NCBI GenBank assembly: GCA_965200875.1
Contig: OZ241456.1
Coordinates: 768,001-832,000, forward strand
DNA from: Bdellovibrionales bacterium
GTDB lineage: Bacteria; Bdellovibrionota; Bdellovibrionia; Bdellovibrionales; UBA1609
DNA: 64,000 bases
Direction of reading: 5' to 3'
Positions 8,216-63,705 of the stretch are shown here, in pieces. The number at the start of each line of letters is the position of its first letter. Position 1 is the stretch's first letter. A program made the position numbers and the translations under genes. Below the pieces are notes generated by a model. It was not told where the DNA came from. It was given only the letters and a program-made list of their open reading frames with translations, and made no database searches.

Positions 8216-8343
8216 TAGTAGCCCGTGAAAAAGTATGTTATTTTGACTGGATTCCCGTTTTCACGGGAATGACGTACTAAGGGGGAGCTTTCCGATAAGT
8301 AGGAAAGTAACTCACTTAAACAGAGCTTTTTCACGGACCACTA
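8216..8343. mobile_element. MITE-like element with terminal inverted repeats enclosing a palindromic repeat
   Basis: TAGTAGCCCGTGAAAAA … TTTTTCACGGACCACTA ends; internal CTGGATTCCCGTTTTCACGGGAATGAC (8247-8273); near-identical left part at 41228; extra right end at 8200-8213. Confidence 0.7.
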
Positions 8344-34219: not shown

Positions 34220-34429
34220 AACATTTTTCTGACTGAACGCTGTCATTCCCACGAAAGCATTGTTTCCGTGAAAGCGGGGGCAGAGCGAGCGGGAATCCAG
34301 TAGTTTTAACGGAGAGATCATTTAGGTTTCTCCGGTCTTTGTTACACAAGGATTTTTTAGCTAAGAATGTTTTGAGTTACAGATAAAATCATCATTCCCG
34401 CTTTGAGCGGGAACTTGTAAAAAGGAGAT

Positions 34430-41230: not shown

Positions 41231-41317
41231 TGGCCCGTGAAAAAGTATGTTATTTTCTTGGATTCCCGTTTTCACGGGAATGACATTTGTATAAAAAGGT
41301 TTTTTCACGGGGTGTTA
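41228..41317. mobile_element. MITE-like element, same family as 8216-8343
   Basis: TAGTGGCCCGTGAAAAAGTATGTTATTTT…GGATTCCCGTTTTCACGGGAATGAC…TTTTTCACGG. Confidence 0.7.
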
Positions 41318-42498: not shown

Positions 42499-44343
42499 GT
42501 GTCTGACAAATTATCATACAAATTATTGAAGATACGGCAAAATTTATCACTTTCTCAGGAGGAACTGGCAGAAGAGTTGGGCGTTTCTTTTGCTACAGTA
42601 AATCGGTGGGAAAACGGTCATTCCACTCCAAGAAGGGTTATAATGGAGACTATCCATAATCTATATAAAAGAGCACAGGAGGTGGAAACACAGATGCTTG
42701 AATCTGAAGATCAAAAACCAAAAAAAGATGTTGTGCGGAGAAAAAGCCGAGGAGGTGGCCCGGGAACAGGTATTCTGGATAGTAGTTCTATGGAACAAAT
42801 GCTTTGGAAAGTTGCCTGCGGAATTAGGGGTGAAAAAGACGCTCCAAAGTTTAAAAATTATCTTCTTCCCCTGTTATTTATCAAGCGACTTTCTGATGTA
42901 TTTGATGACGAGATTAATCGGCTTACGCAAAAGTTTGGCAGTCGCGAAAAAGCTTTAAAAATGCTGGAGCTGGATCCTTCTCTGGTTCGTTTTTACCTTT
43001 CGCCGGAGGCCAGATGGTCTGTTGTCAGTGGGCAGACTGACTTTAAATGGCCAAGAGAAAATAAACCTCGTTCTTTGGGAGAGCAATTAACTTTAACTAT
43101 GAGGGTTATTGTGAAAGACAACCCGGAGTTAAGGGGTGTTATTGATACTGAAGATTATAACGAAAGCAGAGGAGGGGAGCGGGAGATAAGTGATTCTGCT
43201 TTAAGGAAAGTTATTGAAATTTTCTCCAATCCTAAATATCGTTTAGGGCTTAACGATGTGGAGCCTGATTTTTTAGGTCGAGCCTACGAGTATCTTTTAA
43301 GGAAGTTTGCTGAAGGGCAGGGGCAAAGCTCAGGAGAGTTTTTTACTCCGCGTGAAGTGGGCTTTATTATGGCTAAAATTATGCAACCCTTTGGAGGGGA
43401 AACTGCGTATGACTGCGCCTGCGGTTCTTTTGGCCTGTTGATAAAGCTTCAGCTTGTGTTAAGACAAACCAACCCTTTAAATAAAATCCCTTTGCATTTG
43501 AGTGGTCAGGAGCTTAACGGCTCCAGTTTTGCCATTGCCTGTATGAACAGAATTATCCACGATATAGAAGGAAAAGTGAAGAGAGGCGACTCCATGCAAA
43601 ACCCTAAGTTCAAAGACTCTACTGGCAGATTAAAAAAGTTCGATATTATTGTGGCCAATCCCATGTGGAATCAGCCCTTCAACAATTCTGTTTATGAAAA
43701 CGATCCTTTTAATCGCTTTGAGTCCCAAGGTGGCATTACTTCTGGCAAAGCAGACTGGGCATGGCTTCAACACATACTGGCTTGTCTTAAAGAAAAAACA
43801 GGACGGGCAGGGGTGGTGCTGGATACTGGAGCAGTTACTCGAGGGAGTGGAAGTCAACACGAAGACAAGGAGAAAAAAATCAGAAAATGGTTTGTGGATA
43901 ATGACTTTATTGAAGGTGTGATACTTTTACCAGAAAATCTTTTTTACAATACCTCTTCAGCCGGCATTATTGTTTTTCTGAACAAAAACAAACTGGAAGA
44001 AAGAAAAAATAAAATTATTTTATTAAATGCCAGTCAGGAATTTTACAAAGGAAAACCCAAGAATCATATTTCAGAGGAAGGGATTAAAAAAATAGCCACC
44101 GCCTTTATTAAAGGTGAAGAGGTGGATCGTTTTGTGAAGGTTATCACAAAAGAGTCCGTAAAGAAGAATGATTACAACCTCTCTCCTTCCCGATATATCA
44201 GTCTTTCGGAGGAAGCAGTGTATCGCCCCATCCCTCAAATTTTATCTGACTTAAACATGATCCAAAAATCAGCGGATAAAGTGGATCGGGATTTAGCTAT
44301 GATTTTCCAAAAATTAAAGCCTAAACTTAAGGTGCAAAATTAG
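42499..44343 (+). CDS. hsdM: Type I R-M methyltransferase with N-terminal XRE HTH
   Basis: LSQEELAEELGVSFATVNRWENG; LGRAYEYLLRKFA, GEFFTP, DCACGS, ANPMW, LPENLFYNT, NLSPSRY. Confidence 0.92.
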   Translation: MSDKLSYKLLKIRQNLSLSQEELAEELGVSFATVNRWENGHSTPRRVIMETIHNLYKRAQEVETQMLESEDQKPKKDVVRRKSRGGGPGTGILDSSSMEQMLWKVACGIRGEKDAPKFKNYLLPLLFIKRLSDVFDDEINRLTQKFGSREKALKMLELDPSLVRFYLSPEARWSVVSGQTDFKWPRENKPRSLGEQLTLTMRVIVKDNPELRGVIDTEDYNESRGGEREISDSALRKVIEIFSNPKYRLGLNDVEPDFLGRAYEYLLRKFAEGQGQSSGEFFTPREVGFIMAKIMQPFGGETAYDCACGSFGLLIKLQLVLRQTNPLNKIPLHLSGQELNGSSFAIACMNRIIHDIEGKVKRGDSMQNPKFKDSTGRLKKFDIIVANPMWNQPFNNSVYENDPFNRFESQGGITSGKADWAWLQHILACLKEKTGRAGVVLDTGAVTRGSGSQHEDKEKKIRKWFVDNDFIEGVILLPENLFYNTSSAGIIVFLNKNKLEERKNKIILLNASQEFYKGKPKNHISEEGIKKIATAFIKGEEVDRFVKVITKESVKKNDYNLSPSRYISLSEEAVYRPIPQILSDLNMIQKSADKVDRDLAMIFQKLKPKLKVQN

Positions 44344-44431
44344 ATGTTTGAAAAAAATTTTGCTATATTCAGTCCAAAACATAAACCAGCGCGAAAAAAA
44401 ATCAAACCAAGGAGAAGAATGAAAAAAGGAG

Positions 44432-46087
44432 GTGAAAGTGGGCACACCACAGTCACAAAGAAAGCAAAAGCGTTTTCGCATAACTGATAAAAAAATCAAT
44501 AACCTGCTATTAATGGGGGAAGGGTATCGCATAGAGTTTAAACAATCTCTTGATAAGTCTCTTCTTGAAGAGGTTTGTGCTTTTGCCAATTCATCAGGTG
44601 GTTATATTTTAATAGGAGTGGCAGATGATAAAACCATTAAAGGAGTGAACATAAGCCATCGGCAACTTTCTCAAATCCAGGATATGTTGATCCGTTTACA
44701 ACCTAAGTTGGATATCATTGTTACAGCCAAGAAAAACCTTATTGTTATTTGTGTTCCTGAAGGTTCTGAAAAACCTTATAGTTCTCCAAGGGGATTTTTT
44801 ATGAGAGTGGGGGCAAATTCTCAAAAAATGACTAGGGATGAAATTATTGGTTTTTTTAAAAAAGAGGGTCGGATCCATTTTGAAGAGTTAATCAATGAAA
44901 AAGCAACCTTTGAAAAGGATTTTGATCCACAGGCTTTTAAAAAATTTTTAAAACTATCAGGGATCAACCCAACAATTAAACAGGAAACTCTTTTACAAAA
45001 TCTTGATTGTTTGACACCAGATAACAATCTTACAAACTTAGGGGTTTTGTTTTTTGCCAAGGACCTAGATTTCATTATGAATCATGCTCTTGTGGATTGT
45101 ATTTTGTTTCGAGGTGTAAATAAAGTAAAGATTTTAGATAGAAAGCAATACAAAGGAAATATTATTGAAAATATTGAAAGTGCTTTGGCTTTTGTGCAAA
45201 GACATACAAATACAGAGTATGTGATTACAGGTAAACCCCAAAGGGAGGAAATTGCTGATTACCCTGAAACTGCTTTAAGGGAAGCTATTGTCAATGCTGT
45301 TTGCCATAGAGATTATTTTGAAAAACGTTGCCATGTAGTTGTGGAAGTATTTTCTAACAGAGTGAAAATTGACAATCCGGGTGGTTTGCCAAGTGGGCTT
45401 AATCCAAAACAATTTGGAACAAAAAGTGTGCCACGAAATCTTTTTATTGCCTCAATGCTTCATAGAGCAAATTACATAGAACAAGCCGGAACAGGAATAA
45501 ACCGCATAAAAGAAGCACTTGCTAATCATAAAAAGAAAGTGATTCTTGATATTCAATATAGTAAAGCCAGTACTTTTTACACTGTTGTTTTTAGAAAGAA
45601 AGCACTTACCAGCACTACCCAGAAACCGGCATTAGGCACTACCCAGAAAAGGTTATCCGGCACTACCCAGAAACCGGCATTAGGCACTACCCAGAAAAGG
45701 TTATCCGGCACTACCCAGAAACCGGCATTAGGCACTACCCAGAAAAGGTTATCCGGCACTACCCAGAAACCGATATCAGGCACTACCCAGAAAAGGTTAT
45801 CCGGTACTACCCAGAAAAGGTTATCCGGCACTACCCAGAAACCGGCATTAGGCACTACCCAGAAAAGGTTATCCGGTACTACCCAGAAACCGATATCAGG
45901 CACTACCCAGAAAATTTTGAATTTAATAAATAAAAACCCTGTTATCACTAGGCAAGAACTGGCGGAACAAATCGGCAACATTAGTGTAGATGGTATTAAG
46001 TACCATTTGGAACAGCTAAAAAAGAAAGGTTTTTTGAAAAGAATTGGTCCTGCTAAAGGTGGTCATTGGAAGGTTCTTAAAAAATGA
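44432..46087 (+). CDS. AlbA_2 (Schlafen-like) + HATPase_c_4 + winged-helix protein
   Basis: GEGYRIEFK…CAFANSSGG, YPETALREAIVNAVCHRDY, PRN, GTG, RIGPAKGGHW. Confidence 0.88.
   Translation: MKVGTPQSQRKQKRFRITDKKINNLLLMGEGYRIEFKQSLDKSLLEEVCAFANSSGGYILIGVADDKTIKGVNISHRQLSQIQDMLIRLQPKLDIIVTAKKNLIVICVPEGSEKPYSSPRGFFMRVGANSQKMTRDEIIGFFKKEGRIHFEELINEKATFEKDFDPQAFKKFLKLSGINPTIKQETLLQNLDCLTPDNNLTNLGVLFFAKDLDFIMNHALVDCILFRGVNKVKILDRKQYKGNIIENIESALAFVQRHTNTEYVITGKPQREEIADYPETALREAIVNAVCHRDYFEKRCHVVVEVFSNRVKIDNPGGLPSGLNPKQFGTKSVPRNLFIASMLHRANYIEQAGTGINRIKEALANHKKKVILDIQYSKASTFYTVVFRKKALTSTTQKPALGTTQKRLSGTTQKPALGTTQKRLSGTTQKPALGTTQKRLSGTTQKPISGTTQKRLSGTTQKRLSGTTQKPALGTTQKRLSGTTQKPISGTTQKILNLINKNPVITRQELAEQIGNISVDGIKYHLEQLKKKGFLKRIGPAKGGHWKVLKK
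45614..45913 (+). repeat. Coding 24-bp tandem repeat, 12 full units plus a half (TTQK-PALG/RLSG/PISG)
   Basis: ACTACCCAGAAA recurs every 24 nt from 45614 to 45902. Confidence 0.95.
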
Positions 46088-46103
46088 AACGAGCAGTTAG
46101 ACA

Positions 46104-46292
46104 CGATGTCATTCCCGCCTTGAGCGGGAATCCCGCACTTAAACGGGAAGCCAAATCGTTGTCTTCCTGTCCCTTGCGATCGAGAATCCAGCAACAGTTT
46201 TCATTTTGTTACGATGTCATTCCCGCCTTGAGCGGGAATCCCGCACTTAAACAGGAAGATAAATTGTTATCTTCCTGTCCCTTGCGGTCGAG
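46104..46292 (+). repeat. Two composite palindromic repeats, 108-bp period
   Basis: GTCATTCCCGCCTTGAGCGGGAATCCC at 46108 and 46216 with shared downstream flank. Confidence 0.9.
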
Positions 46293-46474
46293 AAGACAAT
46301 CATCTAAAAATAGAAAGGAGATGTTAAAATGAGTGTAAACAAATGTGTTATATGGGGTACTTTACTAAAAACAGAACTGAAAAATTAAAAACTATCAAAG
46401 TATTATCTATTGATAAAAAGGATCAAGGAAATAACTTGTATAAAAATTCAAACAAATAAATAAAGGAGGCAAAC

Positions 46475-46918
46475 ATGAGTGAGCAAAATAAAAAAGAAAG
46501 TGAAATCAATACGGATTTCTTAGATCGCTGTATTCGAGCTTTGGAAATTTCATACAATAAACTGCAAAAACTGTCCCCGGAAAATATTGAATATGACATT
46601 TATCGCTCTGCTTGTGTTAAAGAGTTTGAAATTATTTTGGAGCAATGCGGGAAGTTGTTAAAAAAACGCCTGAGAGATTTTTTTCATTCCAATAAAGCTG
46701 TTGATGATTTGGTATTTAAGGATCTTTTTCGTTACTCAGCAAAACATGGTTTGATGGATATTAAGAGCAGTGAACGCTGGTGTAAATATAGAGATAACAG
46801 AAATAACACAGCTCATGATTATGGAGTGGGTTTTGCCGAAGAAACTTTAAAAGCTCTATCCCCATTTATAACTGACGCGAAAGCCATTGTTGATATTTTG
46901 AAAAAGAAAGAGACATAA
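46475..46918 (+). CDS. HEPN-type nucleotidyltransferase substrate-binding protein (HI0074-like toxin)
   Basis: RSACVKEFEIILE, RNNTAHDY (Rx4H); AAGGAGG RBS. Confidence 0.88.
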   Translation: MSEQNKKESEINTDFLDRCIRALEISYNKLQKLSPENIEYDIYRSACVKEFEIILEQCGKLLKKRLRDFFHSNKAVDDLVFKDLFRYSAKHGLMDIKSSERWCKYRDNRNNTAHDYGVGFAEETLKALSPFITDAKAIVDILKKKET

Positions 46919-47012
46919 ATATAGGGTCGTGAAAAACTTGGTTAAACATTGTTTATTTTTCTAAAAAATAAACCGCTTTAATAAGTAAACATAAAAAATC
47001 AGTTTTGCTGAT

Positions 47013-48893
47013 ATGATAAAAAATAAGACTAAAAAAGCAGGAGAAAGTTCAGTGTCTGAAAAAAAACTTCATTTGCCTGTTAAATATAGAAAACAAATAA
47101 AGACTCTGTTTCGAAAGCATTTACCTGATGTGGATGTATGGGTTTACGGAAGTCGGGTTAACGGACAAAGCCACCCAGCTAGTGACTTAGATCTAGTGTT
47201 GCGTGCGCCGGGGTTAAAAAAGATTAATTCATTAAAACTATATGACTTAAAGGAAGCTTTAACAGAGTCCAATATTCCTTTTTTAGTGGAGGCAAGGGAT
47301 TGGGCTTTACTTCCAAAAAGCTTTCATCAGGAAATTAAGCGTAGTTATATTATTTTAATTAAAGGCGAAAAAAAATATTACACTGATGAGGTAAAAACAA
47401 AAAAAATATTGAGTAAAAAACCTTCTGTCAATTCCTCTGGGTCTGTAAATTTCTCTGAGTTTGTCACCACTTCCTCTGAGCCTATTACTCCATCCGTGGG
47501 CAGGACTCCAAAACTTAAACAGGAAGCCAAATCATTGTCTTCCCGCTCCACCTCTTCAGGCGTTCCCGCCAAGCACGATGTTCATCCCCCTAGGCACGAT
47601 GTCATTCCCGCGCAAGCGGGAATCCAGAAAAAGCTTTCATCTGAAAAAAAATGGAGGCTTTGTTCTATAAGAGAGGAGTATTCATCGACACAACAAGTAG
47701 ATAAATCATTGTCTTCCCGCTCCACCTCTTCAGGCGTTCCCGCCAAGCACGATGTTCATCCCCCTAGGCACGATGTCATTCCCGCGCAAGCGGGAATCCA
47801 GAAAAAGCTTTCATTTGAAAATGAGCAGAAGCTTGGTTCTGCACAATCTGAGTATACAGGAAACACAAAACAAACAGAGATCGGAGAAATACCAGAAGAA
47901 TGGGATATTACTTCTATTAAAGAAGCTTATTTTTTTTCTAAAAAACCAAAAGAATTAAACTTAAAAAGCTTTTCACATATATCTTTTGTTCCCATGCAAT
48001 TAATCCCGGATAATCAGCTATTTTTAAGTAATTATATAGAAAAGAAATGGAAACTACTGTCAAGTGGTGTATATTTTGAGGAAGGAGATTTATTGTTATC
48101 AAAAATTACCCCTTCATTTGAAAATGGAAAACAATGTATTATCAGAAATATAAAAAATGGATTTGGAATTGCAACAACAGAGGTAATTCCTATTAAAAGT
48201 AAAAAAGGGGTAAGTGATATAAGGTTTCTTTTTTATTATTTATTATTAAATAATATTCGCTCTACAATAGCAGGAAAAATGGAAGGAACAACAGGAAAAA
48301 AACGAATACCTGTATATGTTATTAAAAACTTCAAAATCCCTCTTCCACCACTTGAGGAGCAAAAAAAGATTGTGGAGATTTTGTCTAAAATTCAAAAAGC
48401 GGTTGAGATACAAAATAAAATTATTAAAGTCACAAAAGAATTAAAACAAACAACTATGAAGTATCTTTTTACATATGGAACAAGAGGAAGTAAAAGCACT
48501 TTGGAGATACCAGAGTATGCTGACCCTTCCTGTCCCACCTCTTCAATCGTTTCATCTAAGCACGATGTTTATTCTTCTGAACTTGTCACTCCTTCTGAGC
48601 CTGTCAATTCCTCTGAGTCTGTCATTCCCGCCGTGAGCATGACTCTAAAACTTAAGCATGAAGACAAATCGTTGTCTTCCCGTCCCTTGCAGTCGGGAAT
48701 CAAGAAAAAACCTTCATCTGAAAGTGAGAAGGCATTTGGTTCTGCACAAGCGGATATATTGCAAAAGATAGATGATAAAATATCAGTACATGAAAAGAAA
48801 AAGTCAACACTTGAAGAATTACTTAAAACCATGTTAAACCAGCTAATGACCGGAAAAATCCGTACTCATAGTGTGGATATACTGGAAAAATAA
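47013..48893 (+). CDS. hsdS: Minimal nucleotidyltransferase fused to a single-TRD type I specificity subunit, with repeat-derived inserts
   Basis: VWVYGSRVNG…SDLDL (MNT); KQTEIGEIPEEW, GDLLLSKITP, IPLPPLEEQKKI, LMTGKIR (HsdS). Confidence 0.85.
   Translation: MIKNKTKKAGESSVSEKKLHLPVKYRKQIKTLFRKHLPDVDVWVYGSRVNGQSHPASDLDLVLRAPGLKKINSLKLYDLKEALTESNIPFLVEARDWALLPKSFHQEIKRSYIILIKGEKKYYTDEVKTKKILSKKPSVNSSGSVNFSEFVTTSSEPITPSVGRTPKLKQEAKSLSSRSTSSGVPAKHDVHPPRHDVIPAQAGIQKKLSSEKKWRLCSIREEYSSTQQVDKSLSSRSTSSGVPAKHDVHPPRHDVIPAQAGIQKKLSFENEQKLGSAQSEYTGNTKQTEIGEIPEEWDITSIKEAYFFSKKPKELNLKSFSHISFVPMQLIPDNQLFLSNYIEKKWKLLSSGVYFEEGDLLLSKITPSFENGKQCIIRNIKNGFGIATTEVIPIKSKKGVSDIRFLFYYLLLNNIRSTIAGKMEGTTGKKRIPVYVIKNFKIPLPPLEEQKKIVEILSKIQKAVEIQNKIIKVTKELKQTTMKYLFTYGTRGSKSTLEIPEYADPSCPTSSIVSSKHDVYSSELVTPSEPVNSSESVIPAVSMTLKLKHEDKSLSSRPLQSGIKKKPSSESEKAFGSAQADILQKIDDKISVHEKKKSTLEELLKTMLNQLMTGKIRTHSVDILEK
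47529..47814 (+). repeat. Two 112-bp direct repeats (174-bp period) containing the palindrome, inside the hsdS ORF
   Basis: GTCATTCCCGCGCAAGCGGGAATCCAG at 47601 and 47775. Confidence 0.92.
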
Positions 48894-48914
48894 ATAAAGA
48901 ATAAAAAGGACACT

Positions 48915-49979
48915 ATGTTTAATATCGATCAGCAAATCTCATTAAGAACGGAATTAACTCCTCGTATATTGCCGAGAACCCAATATTTGGGAAGCAAACA
49001 GAAATTGGTAAAATGGATATACCAATGCTCTCCTAAAAATATAAAAACAGTTTTTGACGCATTTAGTGGCACATCTGCTGTAGGATATCATTTTAAAACC
49101 CAAGGAAAAAAAGTTATAGCCAATGATTTTCTAAAGTTTAATTACCATATTGGAAAAGCCCTTATTGAAAATAAAAATATCATCTTGACGAATAAAGATA
49201 TTAAGTTGTTGTTGCAAAATAATAAAACCTCTGACTTCTTTATTGAAGAAAACTTTACTGGAGTATTTTTTGAAAAAGAACAGGCTCAATTTTTAGATAA
49301 TTTTAGAGCCAATATTGATCTCTTAAATAATCAATATAAAAAATCTTTGGCTTTTACAATTATTAATAGAGCTTTAACAAAGAAGGTTTTGTTGGGCCAT
49401 TTTGCACATTTAAAAGCTCTGGACTACAGCAAAAATCTTAAGCGTATTAAAAGAAACCCGGCTATTACTCGACCCATAAAAGATCTATTTCTGGATCTGG
49501 TAAATGATTATAATCATGCGGTGTTTGATAATAAGCAACAAAACAAAATGTACTGTCAGGATATAATTGGTTTTATCAGGAATATAAAAGGTGTGGACTT
49601 GGTATATTTTGATCCTCCTTATTATGGCTGTCATCCAGATTATCAGGCTTTTTATCATTTCCTAGAAACTTATGTTGAGTACTGGAAAGAAAAACAATTT
49701 ATTAATAAAACGAAACAATATTTCCCTAAGAAGAAAAGTGGCTTTACACAAAAAAATGAAATAGTGGAGTCATTTAAAAAACTATTTGAGAACAGTCAGG
49801 ATATTCCATATTGGCTGATTTCTTACAATAGTAATAGCTACCCTGATAAAGAGACTATGACGAATATAATACAGCAATATAGAAAAACTAAAGTTTTTGA
49901 AAATGAATATCAAAATCATTACGGAGGCAAAGGCTCTCGCAAAGGTACACGAGAATATTTGTTTTTATGTTATGAGTAA
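48915..49979 (+). CDS. DNA adenine methyltransferase (D12 class)
   Basis: QYLGSK, FDAFSGT, YFDPPY, LISYN, EYLF. Confidence 0.9.
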   Translation: MFNIDQQISLRTELTPRILPRTQYLGSKQKLVKWIYQCSPKNIKTVFDAFSGTSAVGYHFKTQGKKVIANDFLKFNYHIGKALIENKNIILTNKDIKLLLQNNKTSDFFIEENFTGVFFEKEQAQFLDNFRANIDLLNNQYKKSLAFTIINRALTKKVLLGHFAHLKALDYSKNLKRIKRNPAITRPIKDLFLDLVNDYNHAVFDNKQQNKMYCQDIIGFIRNIKGVDLVYFDPPYYGCHPDYQAFYHFLETYVEYWKEKQFINKTKQYFPKKKSGFTQKNEIVESFKKLFENSQDIPYWLISYNSNSYPDKETMTNIIQQYRKTKVFENEYQNHYGGKGSRKGTREYLFLCYE

Positions 49980-50041
49980 AAATAAAGAGCAAGAACATTT
50001 GGATATACTTGTGAAATAAAAATATAAAACAAAAGGAGAGT

Positions 50042-52033
50042 ATGATGAAAATTAAAAAATTAGAGATTGAAAATTTTAAAGCTATAAAGCATCTGAAGTT
50101 GGATATTTTAAGTGACACTGTTTTAATTGCTGGCCCAAATGGCTGTGGCAAATCATGTATCTTTCATGCAATTAGATTATTAAAATCTGTTATAGGTGGA
50201 TATCAGGATAATGAGTGGCATTTGTGGTTTAATGAATTTCAAATAAGTCCACAAAACCTTGGTCAGGATATTATTAAGTTATTTCAAACAGATGACAGAA
50301 AATTACAAATTAAAGCCGATTTTGAATTAAGTGAAGAAGAAAAAACATTTTTAAAAAATGAAGGTAAAGATATGCTTGAATACCAGCTATGGAAAAGAGC
50401 ATTACCTAATATTTTCAATACTCTAGATCAACAATACTATAAAGCTCGACCGTTAGGTGCACAATATGGTGATATAGCTAAAAAAATAACCGAATCATCT
50501 AAGCAATTATTTGAAAATTTGAATAAAGAATTGTCTCAACCAAAAATTAATGTTTGTTTTGAAGCTGATGTAAACGGTGTTCTTACAATATCTCCTACAA
50601 AATCATTACAGCTTGCATTTAGTTTTTTTGAAAAAGACTTAGGTATTATTGATTATCATGGCCCTGATAGGAATTACCATAAAGAAACATTAAATAATAT
50701 TAATTTAAATATTAAGACAAGTCACCAATCTATAAAGCAACACTCTTTATACAATTATACAAATAAGTATTCCAATGTGAAACAGGAAATGGTTGGAAGT
50801 TATATTAGGAGTTTGCTGACAAAAGAGGCTGGAGGAGTAGTGAACAGTTCAGATTCCAATTTAATTGATACCTTAAAAGAGTTGTTTAATGAGTTTTTTC
50901 CTGGAAAAGAGTTTTTAGATCCACAACCAAGTAAAACTGGTGGAATTGATTTTCCTGTAAAACTAAAAAATGGCACAACTCATGATATCAATGATCTTAG
51001 TTCAGGTGAAAAAGAGGTGCTTTATGGTTATTTGAGATTAAGAAGTTCTACACCAAAAAATTCTATCATTATGATTGATGAACCAGAGCTTCATTTGAAT
51101 CCAAAATTAATTTCTGGCCTACCACATTTTTACAAAAAACATTTAAGTGAAAAAATGGGTAATCAAATTTTACTAATAACTCATTCTGATGCTTTTCTTC
51201 GTGAAGCTATGAGAGAAAAGGATTATCAAGTTTATCATATAAAACCACCTTTTAGTATTTCATCTTATAAAGATAATCAAATTAAAGTAGTCAATGTAAA
51301 TAATGATTTGGAAGAAGCTATTATTGATTTAGTTGGTGATTTAGCCACTTATTCACCAGATAAAAAAAATGTGTTGTTGGAAGGAGAAAACTCAGAGTTT
51401 GATTCAAAAATGATTACAAAGTTATTTCCTGAATTTTCAGAAAAAGTAAACTTATTATCTGCTGGCTCAAAGCATAAAGTAATCAGACTACATGAATTAT
51501 TGGAAAAAGCAAATCAAGAAGGGCAACTACATACAAAATTTTTTTCAATTATAGATAAGGATCTACATGATGATAACACTATAAGATCAATAAAGGCATT
51601 TCAGTGGGATGTTTATCATATAGAAAATTATTTATTAAATGAAGACTACTTACTAAAATCTGTAAATGGATTGCTATTGCAAAAACAATGGAGTATTGAA
51701 GAAATAAACGATTTATTATTAAAATGTGCAAAAGAATCTATAGGTGTCCTTATTAAAGATATTCTAACTAATGAGGTATATAAAAAAACTCCTAATCTTA
51801 AAAAAATAGGATGTGATCCAGAAAATTTAAATATCTCTATAGAGATTTATAACTCTCTTCAAAGAAAAATAGACAATCTTTCTAAAATTCCAACAAAGGA
51901 TTATTTGCAAAAATTACAAGATATTGAAAAGCAAAAACGAAAAGAATTTAATCAGGCTTTTTGCAATTACACATGGAAGGAAAAAGTGAAAGGGAGAGAT
52001 GTATTAAAAAGATTAGTGGCAACAATTAATTAG
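50042..52033 (+). CDS. ABC-type ATPase fused to a TOPRIM-like domain (OLD/PARIS-like defence nuclease)
   Basis: GPNGCGKS, LSSGE, IDEPELHL, THS; EG…D, IDKD, IENYL. Confidence 0.8.
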   Translation: MMKIKKLEIENFKAIKHLKLDILSDTVLIAGPNGCGKSCIFHAIRLLKSVIGGYQDNEWHLWFNEFQISPQNLGQDIIKLFQTDDRKLQIKADFELSEEEKTFLKNEGKDMLEYQLWKRALPNIFNTLDQQYYKARPLGAQYGDIAKKITESSKQLFENLNKELSQPKINVCFEADVNGVLTISPTKSLQLAFSFFEKDLGIIDYHGPDRNYHKETLNNINLNIKTSHQSIKQHSLYNYTNKYSNVKQEMVGSYIRSLLTKEAGGVVNSSDSNLIDTLKELFNEFFPGKEFLDPQPSKTGGIDFPVKLKNGTTHDINDLSSGEKEVLYGYLRLRSSTPKNSIIMIDEPELHLNPKLISGLPHFYKKHLSEKMGNQILLITHSDAFLREAMREKDYQVYHIKPPFSISSYKDNQIKVVNVNNDLEEAIIDLVGDLATYSPDKKNVLLEGENSEFDSKMITKLFPEFSEKVNLLSAGSKHKVIRLHELLEKANQEGQLHTKFFSIIDKDLHDDNTIRSIKAFQWDVYHIENYLLNEDYLLKSVNGLLLQKQWSIEEINDLLLKCAKESIGVLIKDILTNEVYKKTPNLKKIGCDPENLNISIEIYNSLQRKIDNLSKIPTKDYLQKLQDIEKQKRKEFNQAFCNYTWKEKVKGRDVLKRLVATIN

Positions 52034-52211
52034 GAAATTTCAACTGAAAATTTTTCATATATGACTTTAAGAAATCAGATTATTGCCACAATGGCTATAG
52101 ACAGTTACAAGCCTGAAGGGATGAAAAAGATTATTCAACAAATAAAAAATGCTTAATGTTGAGGGTTTTTGTATTAAAATTTTATCAGGATATGTGCGGG
52201 CTTATGAGTGG

Positions 52212-52277
52212 TTGAAAGCCTTTTTTGCTTTCTGTTTAGGTGCTGGATTCCCGCCTGCGCTGGAATGACGTGTATGG
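52212..52277 (-). repeat. Composite palindromic repeat left of the GIY-YIG gene
   Basis: TTGAAAGCC…CTGGATTCCCGCCTGCGCTGGAATGAC (core 52243-52269). Confidence 0.9.
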
Positions 52278-52446
52278 AGCGAGCATAGGTGCAAGTTGTA
52301 AGGTGATGATAGGATATACATAGGCTTGTGAATGGCTGAAAGCCCTTTGGGCTTTCAGTTTTGGGAACATACATGAAAAAAAGTGTGATAATTGAAACAC
52401 TGGGGGTTTTTCACGGATCATTACAGTAGACTATAAGAGGGTTATA

Positions 52447-52743
52447 GTGAAGAAAGAGAAACAAGCATTTGTTTATATAATGGCAAATAAAAGAAATGGA
52501 ACAATTTATACAGGAGTGACAAATGATTTATCAAATCGTGTGTGGCAACATAAACAGAATGTAATAGAAGGTTTTACAAAAAAGTACGGTGTTCATCATT
52601 TGGTTTATTTTGAACAACATGGAAGTATGTACTCAGCTATTGAACGAGAGAAACAAATAAAAAAATGGTGCAGGCAATGGAAATTAAAACTCATAGAAAA
52701 AGAAAATCCAAGTTGGAGTGACTTATATGATTCTATCATTTAA
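52447..52743 (+). CDS. Small GIY-YIG nuclease family protein
   Basis: FVYIMANKRNGTIYTGVT, RVWQH, GFTKKY, AIEREKQIKKW, NPSWSDL. Confidence 0.93.
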   Translation: MKKEKQAFVYIMANKRNGTIYTGVTNDLSNRVWQHKQNVIEGFTKKYGVHHLVYFEQHGSMYSAIEREKQIKKWCRQWKLKLIEKENPSWSDLYDSII

Positions 52744-52760
52744 TGTTTATATGTATCGTA

Positions 52761-52826
52761 TTGAAAGCCTTTTTGGCTTTTAGTTTAGATACTGGATTCC
52801 CGCCTGCGCGGGAATGACGTATATGA
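52761..52826 (-). repeat. Composite palindromic repeat right of the GIY-YIG gene
   Basis: Direct repeat of 52212-52277; core 52792-52818. Confidence 0.9.
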
Positions 52827-52860
52827 AATAATGATAACTTAAAAAAACAGGAGGAGTAAA

Positions 52861-54048
52861 ATGCAGATAACGCAGATAAAGTTAAAAAATTTTCGGGCTT
52901 TTCAAAATGTGGAGATGCGGGATATTCCGCACTTCGTGGTTCTTGTTGGTGCTAATGGCACAGGCAAATCCACTTTGTTTTCCGTTTTTGGTTTTCTTCG
53001 TGACGCAATGACCTCTAATGTGACCACCGCTCTTTCAAAATTGGGAGGAAGTCGGGGTTTTAAAGAGGTGGTCAGCAGAAACTCAACAGGTCCTATTGAG
53101 ATTGAAATCAAGTTTCGGGAAAAACCCAAAAGTCAGTTGGTTACTTATGCCTTGTGTATTGCTGAAAAAAATGGTCGCGCGATAGTGGAACGGGAGATCT
53201 TAAAATATCGCCGAGGTACCAGGGGAGCACCTTGGAAGTTTTTAGATTTTTCATGCGGGAAAGGCCAAGCTGTTACCAATGAGATGGATGATGTAAAAGA
53301 TGAAAAAGACCTTCAGAGAGAAGAACAAAACCTTAAATCTCCTGATTTGCTGGCCATAAAGGGACTAGCCCAGTTTGAGCGATTTCCTGCTGTAGTGGCT
53401 CTTGGCAATTTGATTGAGCGTTGGCATATCTCTGACTTCCATATCAGCAAAGCGCGCCCGGAACAAGAATCGGGGTATGCGGAACACTTGTCACGCTCAG
53501 GAGAAAACTTGTCCTTGGTGGTGGAATATCTTTATCAAAATCATAGAAATGTTTTTGACACTATTATCAAACAATTGAGTAAAAGAGTGCCTGGCATTAC
53601 CAAAGTTGATTCCAAACAAACAGAAGAAGGACGTATTTTATTGAAATTTCAGGATGGGGATTTTGAAGATCCGTTTCTAGCTCGTTATGTTTCTGACGGT
53701 ACAATTAAAATGCTGGCCTATCTGATTTTACTTTATGACCCTGCTCCTCATCCTCTGCTGTGCGTGGAAGAACCGGAAAATCAACTTTATCACAGTTTGC
53801 TGGAAGAATTAGCAGAGGAATTTCGCTCTTATGCCAACAAAGGCGGGCAGGTATTTGTCTCCACTCACTCCCCGGATTTTTTAAATTCTGTCAAACTGGA
53901 AGAAGTATTTTGGCTGGAAAAGCAATCCGGCTATACAGTTGTCAAACGAGCTATGGCTAATGAGCAAGTTTCCGCTTATATGAAACAAGGGGATAAAATG
54001 GGAAATCTTTGGACACAGGGTTTTTTTACAGGAGCAGATCCTAAATGA
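52861..54048 (+). CDS. AAA_21-type ATPase
   Basis: GANGTGKS, SDGT, CVEEPEN, STHSP; GGAGGAG RBS. Confidence 0.88.
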   Translation: MQITQIKLKNFRAFQNVEMRDIPHFVVLVGANGTGKSTLFSVFGFLRDAMTSNVTTALSKLGGSRGFKEVVSRNSTGPIEIEIKFREKPKSQLVTYALCIAEKNGRAIVEREILKYRRGTRGAPWKFLDFSCGKGQAVTNEMDDVKDEKDLQREEQNLKSPDLLAIKGLAQFERFPAVVALGNLIERWHISDFHISKARPEQESGYAEHLSRSGENLSLVVEYLYQNHRNVFDTIIKQLSKRVPGITKVDSKQTEEGRILLKFQDGDFEDPFLARYVSDGTIKMLAYLILLYDPAPHPLLCVEEPENQLYHSLLEELAEEFRSYANKGGQVFVSTHSPDFLNSVKLEEVFWLEKQSGYTVVKRAMANEQVSAYMKQGDKMGNLWTQGFFTGADPK

Positions 54049-54614
54049 AAAATCTTGTTTTCTTTCTGGAAGGATATTCTGAAAAAGTAATGCTGGAAGG
54101 TCTGTTATCGCGTTTGTTGCCTGAAAATGTTTCTCCTGTTTATTGTGTGTTTAAAGGGAAAAAAGACTTGGAAAAGAATCTTTTTAAAAAAATACAGGGA
54201 TGGCAAAAACCTGAAAGTGCTTTCATAGTTTTGCTCGACCAAGATCAGGAAAACTGTAAATCTCTTAAGAAAAGAATACTTGAAATATGCAAACAGTGTG
54301 AAAATTCAGTAACCCCTTTAAAGTATATTATTCGCGTAGCTTGCCGTGAACTGGAAAGCTGGTATTTTGGTGATTTAGAAGCTGTTGGAAAAGCATTTAA
54401 TAAGCCAAAATTGCCAGATCGATATAAGAATAAAAAACAATATAAAAATCCAGACAAAATTCAAAATCCTGCGAAAGAACTTGAGAAGATTACCAATAAA
54501 GAATATCAAAAAATTTCTGGTTCTAGAGCTATTGGTTCTTTACTTTCCTGGGAAAATAATAAATCACGTAGCTTTAAAGTGTTTATCGAAGGTATCAAGG
54601 ATCTGGTTCAATGA
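54045..54614 (+). CDS. DUF4276-like (TOPRIM-related) protein coupled to the ATPase
   Basis: FFLEG.SE, LDQD, ELESWYFGD, NKSRSF; ATGA overlap with the ATPase gene. Confidence 0.8.
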   Translation: MKNLVFFLEGYSEKVMLEGLLSRLLPENVSPVYCVFKGKKDLEKNLFKKIQGWQKPESAFIVLLDQDQENCKSLKKRILEICKQCENSVTPLKYIIRVACRELESWYFGDLEAVGKAFNKPKLPDRYKNKKQYKNPDKIQNPAKELEKITNKEYQKISGSRAIGSLLSWENNKSRSFKVFIEGIKDLVQ

Positions 54615-54629
54615 AAAATGATTCTCATT

Positions 54630-54693
54630 TTTCAGTTTAGGTGCTGGATTCCCGCCTGTGCGGGAATGACTTGTATGGAGGGAGAGCGAGCAT
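54630..54693 (-). repeat. Composite palindromic repeat
   Basis: GTTTAGGTGCTGGATTCCCGCCTGTGCGGGAATGAC…TATGGAG…GCGAGCAT, matching 52230-52287. Confidence 0.9.
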
Positions 54694-54702
54694 GGATGTG
54701 AG

Positions 54703-54804
54703 CTTTTTCAGGCTTTAATGAGTATTTATGTGCCAAATTGGAAGGTACTGGATAAAGAGCTTAACTTTATGCAAAAAGAGCAACAACAAGCAGAGCTTTG
54801 TTAA
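54703..54804 (+). pseudogene. C-terminal remnant of a YgjP/M48-like metallopeptidase
   Basis: Hand translation LFQALMSIYVPNWKVLDKELNF… resembles the F..L…Y.P.W……L tail of this family. Confidence 0.45.
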
Positions 54805-56749: not shown

Positions 56750-56910
56750 GAATTGTCTGGGTGAAAAATTATGCTTGGATTTTGATATTCAGTGCAGTTC
56801 TTATTCCCTGAACAAGAACAAGCAAGTTTCCCTCTTAAAATTATTAATTGTGTAAATTTTTCACTGTTTATTGATCCGTAAAAAAGGTTGTTATTTTTGG
56901 AGTGTTTGCT

Positions 56911-57185
56911 TAGTCAATCCTGAATAAGTCTGTTTAGTGAGAGTATGCTCTTACCAATACTTCACCGCTCGGTCTCAAACATGCGTTTTGCCACACACGC
57001 GTCTTTTTAGCCACGGTGTGCTCAAAGCCGAACTCGCCTCGCGGTGAGTATCGGTAAGATCTTTTTCACTGATACTTTTTGCAAGAAAACAAAGGTTGTA
57101 TTGTAAAACCTTGCAATTTTTCCCGAACCTTTTATAAAAAAAATCAAGTGATAACAACGCTTTATTATTTATTCAGAACCGACTA
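56911..57185. mobile_element. 275-bp MITE-like element with internal long hairpin
   Basis: Imperfect inverted ends TAGTCAATCCTGAATAA / TTATTCAGAACCGACTA; internal TCTTACCAATACTTCACCGC … GCGGTGAGTATCGGTAAGA. Confidence 0.55.
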
Positions 57186-57298
57186 CTTAAAAAAAAATAT
57201 TTTTTATTAGATATTTCTCATAAAATATTTTACTATCGAGCAATCAATAACTTTCTATCAATCAATCAACAATTCAATAACAACGAAAGGTGGATTTT

Positions 57299-57874: not shown

Positions 57875-58002
57875 GCCAGTCGGTCTTGAATAAACGATAA
57901 AGCATTATAATCACTCGATTTTTTTTATCGTTGCGTTGCATAGTGACTATTCTGGTGCTTTTTGGGAGAATAAAAAGAGTTTTCCCAAAAGGAAGGAATT
58001 TT

Positions 58003-58887
58003 ATGCAATTCGGAGGTCATCAGAGCTTTCATTTGAGAGATCAGTGGCTTTATAAAGGTACTTATTGGACAAACAAGTCTCCTCAGATACTTTTGAATAC
58101 GAATAATTATAAAATCGCAGAAAAAGCTATACAGAAGCTGGGTGTTGGTAAAAACATGGTGGATTCCATACGATACTGGCTTAAAGCAACAAAATTGATA
58201 GTCATTAACAAAAATGGCATCGAGCTTACGGGTACAGCAAAAACTATCTTGGCAAAAGATCCTTATTTTGAACAAGATGGTACACTTTTTTTAATTCATT
58301 ATCTGCTGGTCACAAATAAAGAGTTTGCAACAACATGGTACTGGTTTTTTAATCATTTTTCTGCTAGGGAATTTGACAAAGAAGCACTTAAGAATGCTTT
58401 TGCTGCTTATATTTCCATTAAAACAAATAAAAAAATTAAGTCTGCCACTTTAGAGAAGGACTTGAATTGCTTATTAAGAATGTATCAGGTTGTGGAATAC
58501 ACAGGAAGAAAAACCCCTGAAACAGAAACCCCTTCACCTTTTGCTAAGTATGGATGGATTAAAAAAAGGGGAGAAAGTTTTATACGAAATAAGTTAAATG
58601 TGAGTGACTTTAATATAAATGTGTTTGCTTATATGTTTTATGTGTTTTGGAAAAATGACTTAAGCCAGCCTGAAGCTGTAAAACTGGAAGATATAACATT
58701 TAAAGAAAACTCCCCAGGTCGTATCTTTCTTTTTTCAGAGGAAGAAATGAATGAGCTTGTGGAAAACTGCTCTAAAAAAACAAAATATCTCAACTATTCA
58801 CGAACGGGTGGATACCTTATTTTGCGACCTGATAAAGAACAGCTGAAAAAAGCTTTAACTAATTATTACAGAGATATGAGTCTTTGA
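58003..58887 (+). CDS. DUF4007 protein (SspB-like)
   Basis: FGGHQSFHLRDQWLYKG, LGVGKNMVDSIRYWL, DPYFE, WYWFFN; ATG at 58003 has an RBS. Confidence 0.85.
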   Translation: MQFGGHQSFHLRDQWLYKGTYWTNKSPQILLNTNNYKIAEKAIQKLGVGKNMVDSIRYWLKATKLIVINKNGIELTGTAKTILAKDPYFEQDGTLFLIHYLLVTNKEFATTWYWFFNHFSAREFDKEALKNAFAAYISIKTNKKIKSATLEKDLNCLLRMYQVVEYTGRKTPETETPSPFAKYGWIKKRGESFIRNKLNVSDFNINVFAYMFYVFWKNDLSQPEAVKLEDITFKENSPGRIFLFSEEEMNELVENCSKKTKYLNYSRTGGYLILRPDKEQLKKALTNYYRDMSL

Positions 58888-63000: not shown

Positions 63001-63705
63001 AAGAATGTAACTTTAGAGGCTGTTTCTTCCGTAGGTAAAGATCGGCAGAATAAAAGCCTGAATCAAATCAGTATAATTAAAAATTTTCAGAATATTCTTT
63101 CACAGGTAAAGAATTATCCCTTTAGCTCCAATACCAATCGATTTGTTGGAAGAGCACTAAACTTTCCTTCTTTCGGGCATAAACAATATTTTTTGGAAAC
63201 CATTGCTGATGTGTTGACTGGTTCTTCCCCTCGTTATTGGAATGGACAGGGTTATTCCATGTTTGAGTTTGCCTTAAAACGAGTTAAAACAGAAATAGAA
63301 TTAGGCGCGGAAATAGCTAACCCTCAGTTTAAGGGGAAATCTGTGTTAGCTTTTATTGATAAGGGGCAAAATAAAAAAACAATCATAAAACTAGGTGCTC
63401 AATTTGAGTTGGAAAAACGACTTGGCCTCGCTCTGGAACAAATAAACAAAACATTGGATTCTTTGGATGAGATAGATAAAAGAAAAGTTGTTTTAGCCTT
63501 GTTGGAGAATATTGACAAAAAAACTGCTACAGACAAAACTCTTAATTTTAATAGTGTCCAGTCTTCCAATAATGTTCAGCAGAAATACGGCTCTCAGCAT
63601 ACCTCTGTTTCGCGCTCTACTCCAAAGACATATCCTGCTACTACACAGCGTTCCCTTAATACGGGTCATTCCCTCACAAGCGGGAATCCTATATGGAAAA
63701 AGTAA
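60043..63705 (+). CDS. Large P-loop ATPase (SspC/BrxC-like)
   Basis: RSTNLELD, GSPGLGKS, IYDEFGKYLE, EWAKVEGRF, FPLHP, QNERTLYTFL, PPYGLRLG. Confidence 0.8.
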   Translation: MKKHTEKWIQLSESYNRSTNLELDFKDVSRLKDIYLSSKFQEGLKEVFTSILETNSKHRVRVLSGSPGLGKSTFALLIAQILSKKHPKFIGHLMNQANKKLQIDFNQFQKSRKTKLLPVFINGYEGEIEEVFKHNLKKALSENSLSLKGVFKDTLKFYKASLNTLKTKGYSGIFVIYDEFGKYLEKALHSPTDLNIQFLQNFAEFCDRSGETQCHLMLITHLSVSQYASQLPINVQQEWAKVEGRFQESAFYDKSADYYKMISAVFEKNISETHPSIAEKYKTYINKYLVNFSKDALEGFIDLKNIKSIILNCFPLHPSVLALLPHLSKKVAQNERTLYTFLTRDEDNSLKRFLQEKTQITLLMPYHLYKYFQPLIGKDIGIGGTYKIQLMVEEAFKYVSKTDEVSKQIISLMALCSVIKDTHFAPLTEAFIISCFNQDYSRTNIKKSLTYLRKKKVIFYNKNTKQYLLQEGSPVDIDEEIAKLKNITLTGKSLVQVLKRYFKTDFITPKKYNFENAITRFYRTEIISVEELKNLSKKNNIDFYREDGRLFYVIPFSHDELVYARREIQKISSPLTVFLLPKQFIECRKDIEELNAVDCLYNNKEILSASSLVKKELDRHKEILLSSIDSLLKPLIGYMGLSADVIYPTELSEQKEITHFKDLERFLGTFFTKEYNKYVSFNLEYMNRHSVSGSITLGRKKFLDTLRFYKEKPKGDITCLIKGHGPDYVILDTMLRLSSFKYHSVKNIYEVSSKSEYYKFFKEYKKILSQHPQGISASMLLDILVSPPYGLRLGVIPVFISLADLCFKQPVSHYFDSAYVKDLDGDHYDLLMKYPKKTTIHYTPIDNKKQKFLDGLGKIFKADGVSVRSVISALVKWRRGIPESTKFSSGLSQEGRKLLIQIDSSKQPDHLLFTGIPYCFEKTNVGRVNLQGTKDILLKLKITKKEIDAIYRNLLLKMEKELSSFISFINEQCLNHSASKTLQNKRKNVTLEAVSSVGKDRQNKSLNQISIIKNFQNILSQVKNYPFSSNTNRFVGRALNFPSFGHKQYFLETIADVLTGSSPRYWNGQGYSMFEFALKRVKTEIELGAEIANPQFKGKSVLAFIDKGQNKKTIIKLGAQFELEKRLGLALEQINKTLDSLDEIDKRKVVLALLENIDKKTATDKTLNFNSVQSSNNVQQKYGSQHTSVSRSTPKTYPATTQRSLNTGHSLTSGNPIWKK
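63665..63689 (+). repeat. Palindromic repeat copy inside the 3' end of the ATPase ORF
   Basis: GTCATTCCCTCACAAGCGGGAATCC. Confidence 0.85.

Follow-up and report, generated by a model that had tools for sequence, protein, structure and literature searches.

An Ssn-type nuclease gene and its hairpin repeats in a partly decayed type I restriction locus of a Bdellovibrionales bacterium

We analyzed 64,000 nucleotides of contig OZ241456.1 from a Bdellovibrionales bacterium (GenBank assembly GCA_965200875.1, positions 768,001 to 832,000 of the forward strand; this whole stretch is called the window below). Positions 42499 to 54764 of the window hold a type I restriction cluster with swappable cargo genes, which is partly broken and decaying. 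Within it, hairpin repeats flank a small gene, ssn, whose predicted product is a member of the Ssn family of GIY-YIG nucleases. This family (SsnA, cd10448) was defined together with its NTS/SRM hairpin, which contains the repeat dRS3, by Chenal et al. (2025; PMC11893778). Comparisons were made within a genus set consisting of the focal genome (G000) and 14 relatives, each given a G-number, whose genomes are 83-95% complete. The features of the locus, in order, are:

42499..44343, plus strand: HTH-HsdM, a type I methyltransferase, the left anchor of the locus
44432..46087, plus strand: AlbA_2/RecG-C cargo gene, not at this place in G009
46108..46241, plus strand: two N9 hairpin copies, a 108-bp tandem duplication 3′ of the AlbA_2 gene
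46330..46385, plus strand: 5′ stub of a 360-amino-acid (aa) cargo gene that is whole in G009
46475..46918, plus strand: HEPN-like nucleotidyltransferase substrate-binding protein
47013..48893, plus strand: MNT-HsdS fusion with a single recognition domain, carrying three repeat copies in frame
47600..47801, plus strand: two SRM copies, a 174-bp tandem duplication, in frame in the MNT-HsdS linker directly before the recognition domain
48621..48700, plus strand: degenerate copy, in frame in HsdS at the place of the missing second recognition domain
48915..49979, plus strand: D12-class adenine methyltransferase, cargo
50042..52033, plus strand: AriAB (PARIS-like) ATPase-TOPRIM fusion (PADLOC AriAB 4.8e-174, profile 1-653 of 694)
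52243..52270, minus strand: NTS/SRM hairpin 5′ of ssn, an SRM match whose single NTS mismatch is in the stem
52447..52743, plus strand: ssn, 98-aa single-domain GIY-YIG nuclease of the Ssn/SsnA family (PF01541, 7e-16)
52792..52819, minus strand: perfect NTS hairpin 3′ of ssn (0 NTS mismatches, 8-bp stem) in the usual right-end orientation
52861..54614, plus strand: HEC-01 candidate defense pair, ABC ATPase (52861-54048) and DUF4276/TOPRIM-like gene (54045-54614)
54644..54671, minus strand: SRM hairpin 3′ of HEC-01; the left edge of an hsdR deletion is about 30 bp away
54701..54764, plus strand: remnant (3′ part) of the small gene located after hsdR in relatives (83% to G009, 80% to G010)

The only domain in the 98-aa protein is PF01541. 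It aligns without gaps, with 53 of 93 residues identical (57%) and an E value of 9e-29 over 95% of the length, to a 94-aa protein of Neisseria gonorrhoeae, which is unannotated, is ringed by 16 hairpins and was taken as the SsnA orthologue in place of the N. meningitidis protein. The match is thus far stronger than a threshold of E < 1e-10 over >75% of the length, and falls narrowly short of a stricter bar of 60% identity. Residues Y10, Y21 and E68 align with Y6, Y17 and E64 of SsnA, the residues mutated in the published work (PMC11893778), and are invariant in 83 of 83 aligned sequences. No Ssn model in NCBIfam matched above its cut-off. The other GIY-YIG genes of the genome (590-aa and 250-aa frames) have no adjoining hairpins. 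A metagenome scan returned no closer ssn relative with DNA context above 66% identity; relatives at 79-82% are available as proteins only.

The first-pass annotation of this DNA had proposed that the GIY-YIG subfamily is flanked by the palindrome. This expectation is borne out among the best 80 of 247 confirmed homologue loci, 68 of which had enough flanking sequence. With a loose hairpin rule and distal segments as controls, a hairpin lies within 250 bp in 61 of 68 loci versus 11 of 102 controls. Hairpins are present on both sides in 42 of 68 loci (1 of 102 controls), and face inward in 31 of these 42. The published SRM pattern occurs within 500 bp in only 14 of 69 homologue loci, likely because many of them carry other hairpin types. 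Both flanks of the gene examined herein (52243 and 52792) fit the SRM pattern, with 1 and 0 mismatches to the NTS, respectively. The two are in direct orientation (-,-), and therefore the usual left hairpin has likely been lost. Among distant ssn loci, an hsd-like gene is found in the flanks in 1 of 160 cases (80 of these are metagenome loci, many of them short), and 11 of 137 neighbors match PADLOC models, some probably spuriously.

Much of this had been reported before. The association of the gene with hairpins, the likeness of the repeat to dRS3 and the analogy with RAYT genes and their repetitive extragenic palindromes (REPs) were all suggested correctly by the annotation and are all in PMC11893778, whose authors liken NTS-ssnA-NTS to IS200/IS605 and REP systems. 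According to the same paper, binding of the hairpin by SsnA is confined to single-stranded DNA, which the enzyme cuts a few bases to the 5′ side of the hairpin. Cutting at the hairpin, also correctly guessed, is thus published for SsnA and would be expected of the 98-aa protein. No later publication on Ssn was found beyond this paper. In short, the nuclease-hairpin part of the initial proposal is right, yet already published.

The window was searched with the pattern GTCATTCCC-N8-GGGAATCC at <=3 mismatches, which gives 9 matches versus 0.10 expected from shuffled sequence. Exact N8 copies lie at 8249(-), 41260(-), 47601(+), 47775(+), 52794(-), 54646(-) and 63665(+). The copy at 52245(-) has one mismatch, and a match at 30510, absent from the list in the annotation, has three. 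Every position on that list does carry the motif in whole or in part, but several copies are altered: those at 46108 and 46216 have an N9 spacer instead of N8, that at 48621 is a left arm only, that at 34242 has its arms separated by an insert, and that at 34392 is without the G tag and the tail. The repeat fits the form of CGTC-1 REPs and dRS3, with a (C/T)GTC tag, an 8-bp stem starting with AT, a loop of 4-5 nt, a CCA-like tail and many dispersed copies. A structured RNA family was considered as well and rejected, the Rfam matches in the window being to rRNA and tRNA only.

Two kinds of arrangement are formed by these copies. On the right, three minus-strand copies are direct repeats (58 of 65, 50 of 55 and 42 of 48 bases shared) that enclose ssn and the HEC-01 pair, as had been noted from the sequence at the outset. 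On the left, the pairs 46108/46216 and 47601/47775 each represent a local tandem duplication, with spacings of 108 and 174 bp, respectively, and copies 47601, 47775 and 48621 are in frame within a single open reading frame (ORF; 47013-48893, MNT-HsdS). The idea of repeat-bounded cassettes therefore describes the right-hand enclosures and fails for the left half.

The locus contains hsdM and hsdS with variable genes between core genes, and the same locus with differing cargo is found in G008, G009, G010 and G014, in which the type I system is complete. No hsdR is present in the window. The left edge of the hsdR deletion lies about 30 bp from the 54644 hairpin and its right edge falls within the next gene, at a place without a repeat. 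HsdS has a single recognition domain, and the second has gone beside the degenerate copy at 48621. Thus, hsdR and one HsdS domain have each been lost next to a hairpin. The AriAB frame meets a stop codon about 40 codons short of its natural end, and the HEC-01 genes match the PADLOC HEC-01 models at 2.6e-200 and 3.6e-69.

Some further observations concern the genes in and near the locus. A one-domain HsdS acting with HsdM, without HsdR, may methylate a symmetric site, an idea that derives from work on half-subunits. The AlbA_2 gene carries tandem 8-codon units (GTTQK-containing) at 45600-45910, before the winged helix, and a similar tract is present in G005. To the right lie sspB (57931-58887) and sspC (60043-63705), genes of the Ssp phosphorothioation system. 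A different dispersed repeat at about 56890-57190 has many copies in this genome, G003 and G009.

Repeat copies are spread throughout the 1.87-Mb genome. Counted at two stringencies, there are 32 strict copies and 63 relaxed ones, one of which was dropped as a chance match (leaving about 62). Copies are densest in the focal 8.8 kb, which contains 7; other dense stretches hold 5-6, and one of them surrounds comEC. Elsewhere, repeats adjoin rpsK/rpoA, two Mur ligase genes, cmk/rpsA, lysS, guaA and purA, and occur in an rRNA spacer. The five real in-gene copies of this genome are all in defense-type genes (three hsdS genes, one KAP NTPase and one sspC end). In G010, 8 of 16 strict copies are intragenic, in priA, hflX, purL, nuoG, a Na/Ca exchanger, an unknown gene, hsdS and hsdR; the first five of these are housekeeping-type genes.

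A large share of the copies, 34 of 63, lie near the ends of an element resembling a miniature inverted-repeat transposable element (MITE). This element has CCGTGAAAAA inverted ends, mostly 97-134 bp apart, and TA-bounded flanking duplications of 6-7 bp in 7 of 13 complete examples. Two copies are in the window, with about 30 more genome-wide, and the hairpin at 52243..52270 is followed by part of the same repeat, to about 52425. The MITE tail is nearly private to this genome, with 34 copies versus 1 in the 14 relatives. No transposase is encoded between exact inverted ends lying <=3 kb apart, and the only IS200-like transposase sequences (Y1_Tnp) in the genome are two short fragments, one of them beside a MITE-like element. 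The repeat-bearing features of the window outside the locus are:

8223..8336, minus strand: MITE-like element, 114-bp core with CCGTGAAAAA inverted ends, carrying the SRM at 8247-8274, with a 6-bp flanking duplication
34242..34420, plus strand: two decayed hairpin copies in the 23S-5S rRNA spacer
41235..41310, minus strand: shorter copy of the MITE-like element, carrying hairpin 41260
63665..63689, plus strand: hairpin copy within the 3′ end of sspC

Three side observations were made on the dispersed copies. First, the GTCA-bearing strand is leading-strand sequence (lagging-strand template) in only 18 of 62 copies and in 6 of 31 MITE copies, which are not independent of one another; selection against self-cutting at forks or gene orientation are possible causes, and of 35 copies located between co-directional genes, 25 lie on the template strand. 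Second, the only comEC match is a 313-aa frame amid five hairpin copies (C1:1093197-1096127), downstream of a radA-like gene, a setting in which competence may be broken or modulated. Third, G010 has a 90-aa gene without a Pfam family at three dispersed sites (L132, L133 and L134), with a hairpin before it and a pilin-like gene after it; at L133 the gene lies between two direct hairpins.

Within the genus, strict copies are found in 10 of 14 relatives and are absent from four. G011 is the only relative with an intact ssn and has the highest repeat count, 188. G009 has a 20-codon ssn stub and 46 copies, and in eight other relatives there are 13-77 copies and no ssn was found. Among 26 more distant relatives, one has two copies and half an ssn gene. 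Repeat abundance therefore tracks the gene only loosely: the richest relative has an intact ssn, but nine relatives without one hold 13-77 copies. The distribution would fit the gain and decay of a selfish unit that leaves its repeats behind.

The G011 locus (L090:8560-20000, L091:1-6159) is the most elaborate in the set. It contains three hsdS-like genes, about 29 hairpins in arrays like those called NIME, the intact ssn, the 5′ stub of a second ssn, and a Fic-HsdR fusion gene that contains four hairpins.

Integron-like arrays have a recombination site at nearly every junction and in one orientation, a linked site-specific recombinase, precise gain and loss, and circular intermediates. The annotation had offered such an array, with the nuclease as candidate mobilizer and no integrase in the window, as its reading of the locus, and the comparisons speak against it. 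Repeats occupy 3 of the 8 junctions here, in both orientations, and three copies are intragenic. Eighteen type I loci were selected by hand from the Methylase_S matches of eight genomes that carry the repeat; fused type IIG-like genes, weak matches and the repeat-free G012 were excluded. In these, 12 of 117 junctions have a copy (<=3 mismatches). The focal locus contributes 3 (of 8 junctions), G011 another 3 (of 10) and the remaining 16 loci 6 (of 99), so that cargo turns over mostly without junction repeats. A match to a recombinase family was sought among 15 ORFs between 39.8 and 58.9 kb of the window, the rest of the genome not being searched for one, and none was found. In REP-RAYT systems the flanked gene encodes an HUH tyrosine transposase bordered by its own REPs; here the flanked gene encodes a GIY-YIG protein.

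The manner of gene loss is also informative. Losses leave 5′ stubs, as seen for the 360-aa gene here, ssn in G009 and the second ssn in G011, and only one edge of the hsdR deletion has a repeat next to it. Losses between species at this locus are thus imprecise or one-ended, although the relatives compared are only 69-78% identical. Sequence similarity to G009 begins again at 52820, roughly 4 bases away from the cut position inferred from the oligonucleotides of the published study, and several breakpoints abut a hairpin. However, breakpoints at repeats are partly trivial, because the insertion of a repeat alone breaks an alignment. Cassette gain or loss at repeat boundaries would fit the position of several breakpoints and would not fit the imprecise losses seen among these relatives, and we regard the cassette reading as only partly supported.

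Contigs from two runs of one sample were inspected as well. One 7.6-kb contig covers 49394-56949 with no differences. Other contigs are joined at hairpins, with a short side of only 20-30 bases and a hairpin depth up to thousandfold higher; given these short overlaps and depths, they likely carry the repeats of other organisms. Because contigs drop rare variants, we take these data to be neutral with respect to excision.

GIY-YIG nucleases are hydrolytic enzymes that are not known to religate DNA, and therefore an enzyme that cuts and has no joining chemistry would be a poor substitute for an integrase. The only in vivo result, that SsnA lowers the integration of NTS-bearing DNA in N. meningitidis (PMC11893778), counts against such a role too.

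Based on these findings, we favor, with a probability of roughly 65%, the explanation that a selfish Ssn nuclease-hairpin element resides in a tolerant, variable type I hot spot, where its hairpins likely build up as selfish DNA and seed occasional imprecise deletions and duplications rather than delimiting working cassettes. Family membership, the hairpin match, genome-wide spread and the turnover of cargo in relatives are established at the level of sequence. We propose that a hairpin-ssn-hairpin unit entered the locus, itself subject to horizontal exchange, in the ancestor of G000 and G009, and that the usual inward-facing left hairpin was lost later. Cuts beside hairpins in transient single-stranded DNA, at forks or in incoming DNA, could then be repaired by the host in ways that yield local hairpin copies and one-ended deletions, and direct repeats of 50-65 bp may permit occasional host-driven duplication or loss. 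Dispensable defense genes and flexible HsdS linkers would tolerate hairpins, and thus copies would persist there. Cargo exchange would proceed through conserved hsd flanks, as in restriction loci free of repeats, in the manner of minimal mobile elements (PMC3898611). About half of the dispersed copies in this genome probably spread inside the separate MITE-like element.

The hsdS genes deserve particular attention in this regard. In-frame hsdS copies occur in three frames and both orientations, and therefore several of the insertions are independent. In five orthologous hsdS genes, hairpins lie directly before recognition domains, and these domains swap position between genomes. The shared recognition-domain blocks begin 25-145 bases past the hairpin, at conserved hsdS boxes, and are 73-75% identical, like core genes. 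Ordinary domain movement (PMC3077401) would explain these swaps. We found no publication on a concentration of SRM copies in hsdS among the titles and abstract openings of the open-access literature. As a separate observation, an hsdS gene of G008 (L094:150-2354) has linkers before both recognition domains that have grown by many 18-bp units from the left arm of the hairpin, units that encode VIPASA-like repeats.

Several observations weigh against the selfish-element explanation. Of 23 specificity-subunit ORFs, 10 contain an in-frame copy, a much higher rate than in other genes. Both intact ssn genes among the 15 genomes lie in type I loci, and these loci belong to two families (HsdM 30% alike). 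Strict copies in the ssn-bearing loci number 6 versus 0.21 expected in the focal genome and 29 versus 1.5 in G011, and 16 type I loci free of ssn are still enriched, with 12 copies versus 3.8 expected (the loci are kin and not independent). In G011, one downstream gene start follows a hairpin twice with a different upstream context, and two hsdS alleles with a common 1-kb block (97% identity) have hairpin arrays between them. G009 carries a duplicate of the 5′ end of the HEC-01 ATPase gene behind a hairpin variant. Finally, defense-type genes make up 26 of 98 repeat-adjacent genes versus 12 of 110 controls (p=0.004). The genes were sorted by us from their Pfam matches, and of the 40 stretches from which controls came, 30 had been selected because they contain a repeat. 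Leaving out the focal locus gives 19 of 91 (p=0.08; reassigning one misassigned control brings this to p=0.03).

One possibility that would accommodate these points is that Ssn and its hairpins form an integrase-free shuffling system for restriction loci, in which cuts provide recombinogenic ends that swap cargo and HsdS domains; this carries the idea of the annotation over to hsdS. The dense repeats of the two ssn-bearing loci, the hairpins just before swapping recognition domains, the switch of context directly after a hairpin in G011, the resumption of G009 homology close to the inferred cut, and the presence of comEC and two dprA genes in the genome all speak in its favor. However, cargo varies in ssn-free loci that have a repeat at only 6 of 99 junctions, and the shared domains start at hsdS boxes that already explain their movement and are no more recent than core genes. 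Together with imprecise losses, breakpoints that are partly trivial, and the reduced integration caused by SsnA in vivo, this makes a shuffling system fairly unlikely. We consider quite unlikely its more specific form, that the pair has been recruited in this genus as an integrase-free diversifier of type I loci. Cuts in incoming single-stranded DNA would then steer crossovers, and hairpins before each HsdS recognition domain and between cargo genes would allow domains and cassettes to be swapped, duplicated or dropped.

Another explanation gives the nuclease a protective role. Acting as a domesticated single-strand restriction gate, Ssn would cut incoming DNA at hairpins and so slow the replacement or loss of flanked defense genes by transformation. 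Such an effect on integration has been demonstrated in vivo for N. meningitidis (PMC11893778), comEC and dprA are present, the ssn frame is intact with all catalytic residues, and repeats are about twice as frequent beside defense-type genes. Against this, only 2 of 15 genus genomes have an intact ssn, and both G009 and G011 carry stubs of the gene, a pattern suggestive of gain followed by decay; decay is also evident in the flanked locus, which is without hsdR, with half an HsdS and with a premature AriAB stop; and the comEC match is a short frame amid five repeat copies. We therefore think a gate of this kind improbable.

A purely passive spread of the hairpins, carried by a transposase-driven MITE and by restriction loci moving horizontally, with ssn having no role in it, is very unlikely: MITE ends with flanking duplications lie near 34 of 63 copies, nine relatives hold copies without an intact ssn and fragments of IS200-like transposases exist, but the MITE tail is almost absent from hairpin-rich relatives, focal plus-strand and in-gene copies are without MITE ends, no transposase lies between closely spaced exact ends, and hairpins are densest next to ssn in both ssn-bearing genomes.

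If a selfish element is indeed responsible, the locus adds one more Ssn/SRM pair, and with it a candidate new specificity for single-strand DNA tools. It also bears on the role of Ssn outside Neisseria, where hairpins pile up next to ssn and hsdS linkers repeatedly gain in-frame copies (10 of 23). Were the exchange of domains and cassettes shown to be directed by Ssn cuts, a new, recombinase-free route to altered restriction specificity would be at hand. Such a result would also answer the question, raised in 2007, of what drives gene exchange at dRS3 arrays. Such exchange is not itself a new idea, since it was proposed in that year to occur via a specific enzyme (PMC1797815).

The system most like the one described here is Ssn itself (PMC11893778), with which it shares a lone GIY-YIG protein of about 100 aa, catalytic residues in register, a perfect NTS directly downstream and dispersed repeats. 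The differences are a new host group, direct hairpins rather than the inward pair of most homologues, a type I restriction locus as the setting, and many intragenic copies compared with 2% in N. meningitidis. The repeat is also like the CGTC-1 REPs, which include dRS3 and Rickettsia RPE-6 (Di Nocera et al. 2013, PMC3733652), in its tag, 8-bp stem, 4-5 nt loop and short CCA-like tail. Intragenic CGTC-1 copies add residues and were argued to be neutral in flexible linkers, and intragenic copies that add residues occur here as well. No dedicated enzyme was known for these repeats at the time of that account, and a concentration in hsdS linkers does not figure in the part of it drawn on here.

Neisserial dRS3/NIME arrays (PMC1797815, PMC3898611) likewise stand beside variable genes, and exchange, insertion or deletion of the flanked genes was proposed for them; the hairpin arrays of G011 resemble them. 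Those arrays accompany surface-protein genes and were proposed to involve a phage integrase, whereas defense genes and a neighboring nuclease are found here. In minimal mobile elements (PMC3898611), whole-gene cassettes are swapped between conserved flanks by homologous recombination. Type I restriction-modification loci that embed variable candidate defense cassettes, among them HEC-01 and PARIS, were described by Payne et al. (10.1101/2024.01.29.577857), in whose assay HEC-01 gave no protection. The present locus shares with these the nesting of variable cassettes, including HEC-01, in a multi-gene defense locus, and differs in having lost hsdR; a repeat-based mechanism is not part of the portion of that account used here. 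In the pneumococcal tvr locus (PMC6265443), parts of hsdS are shuffled at direct repeats via circles by a recombinase that the locus itself requires, unlike the present locus, where none of the 15 genes scanned matches a recombinase family. HsdS domain movement (PMC3077401) comes closest for the recognition domains: they change position by way of conserved hsdS boxes, and two can be reduced to one, as has occurred here.

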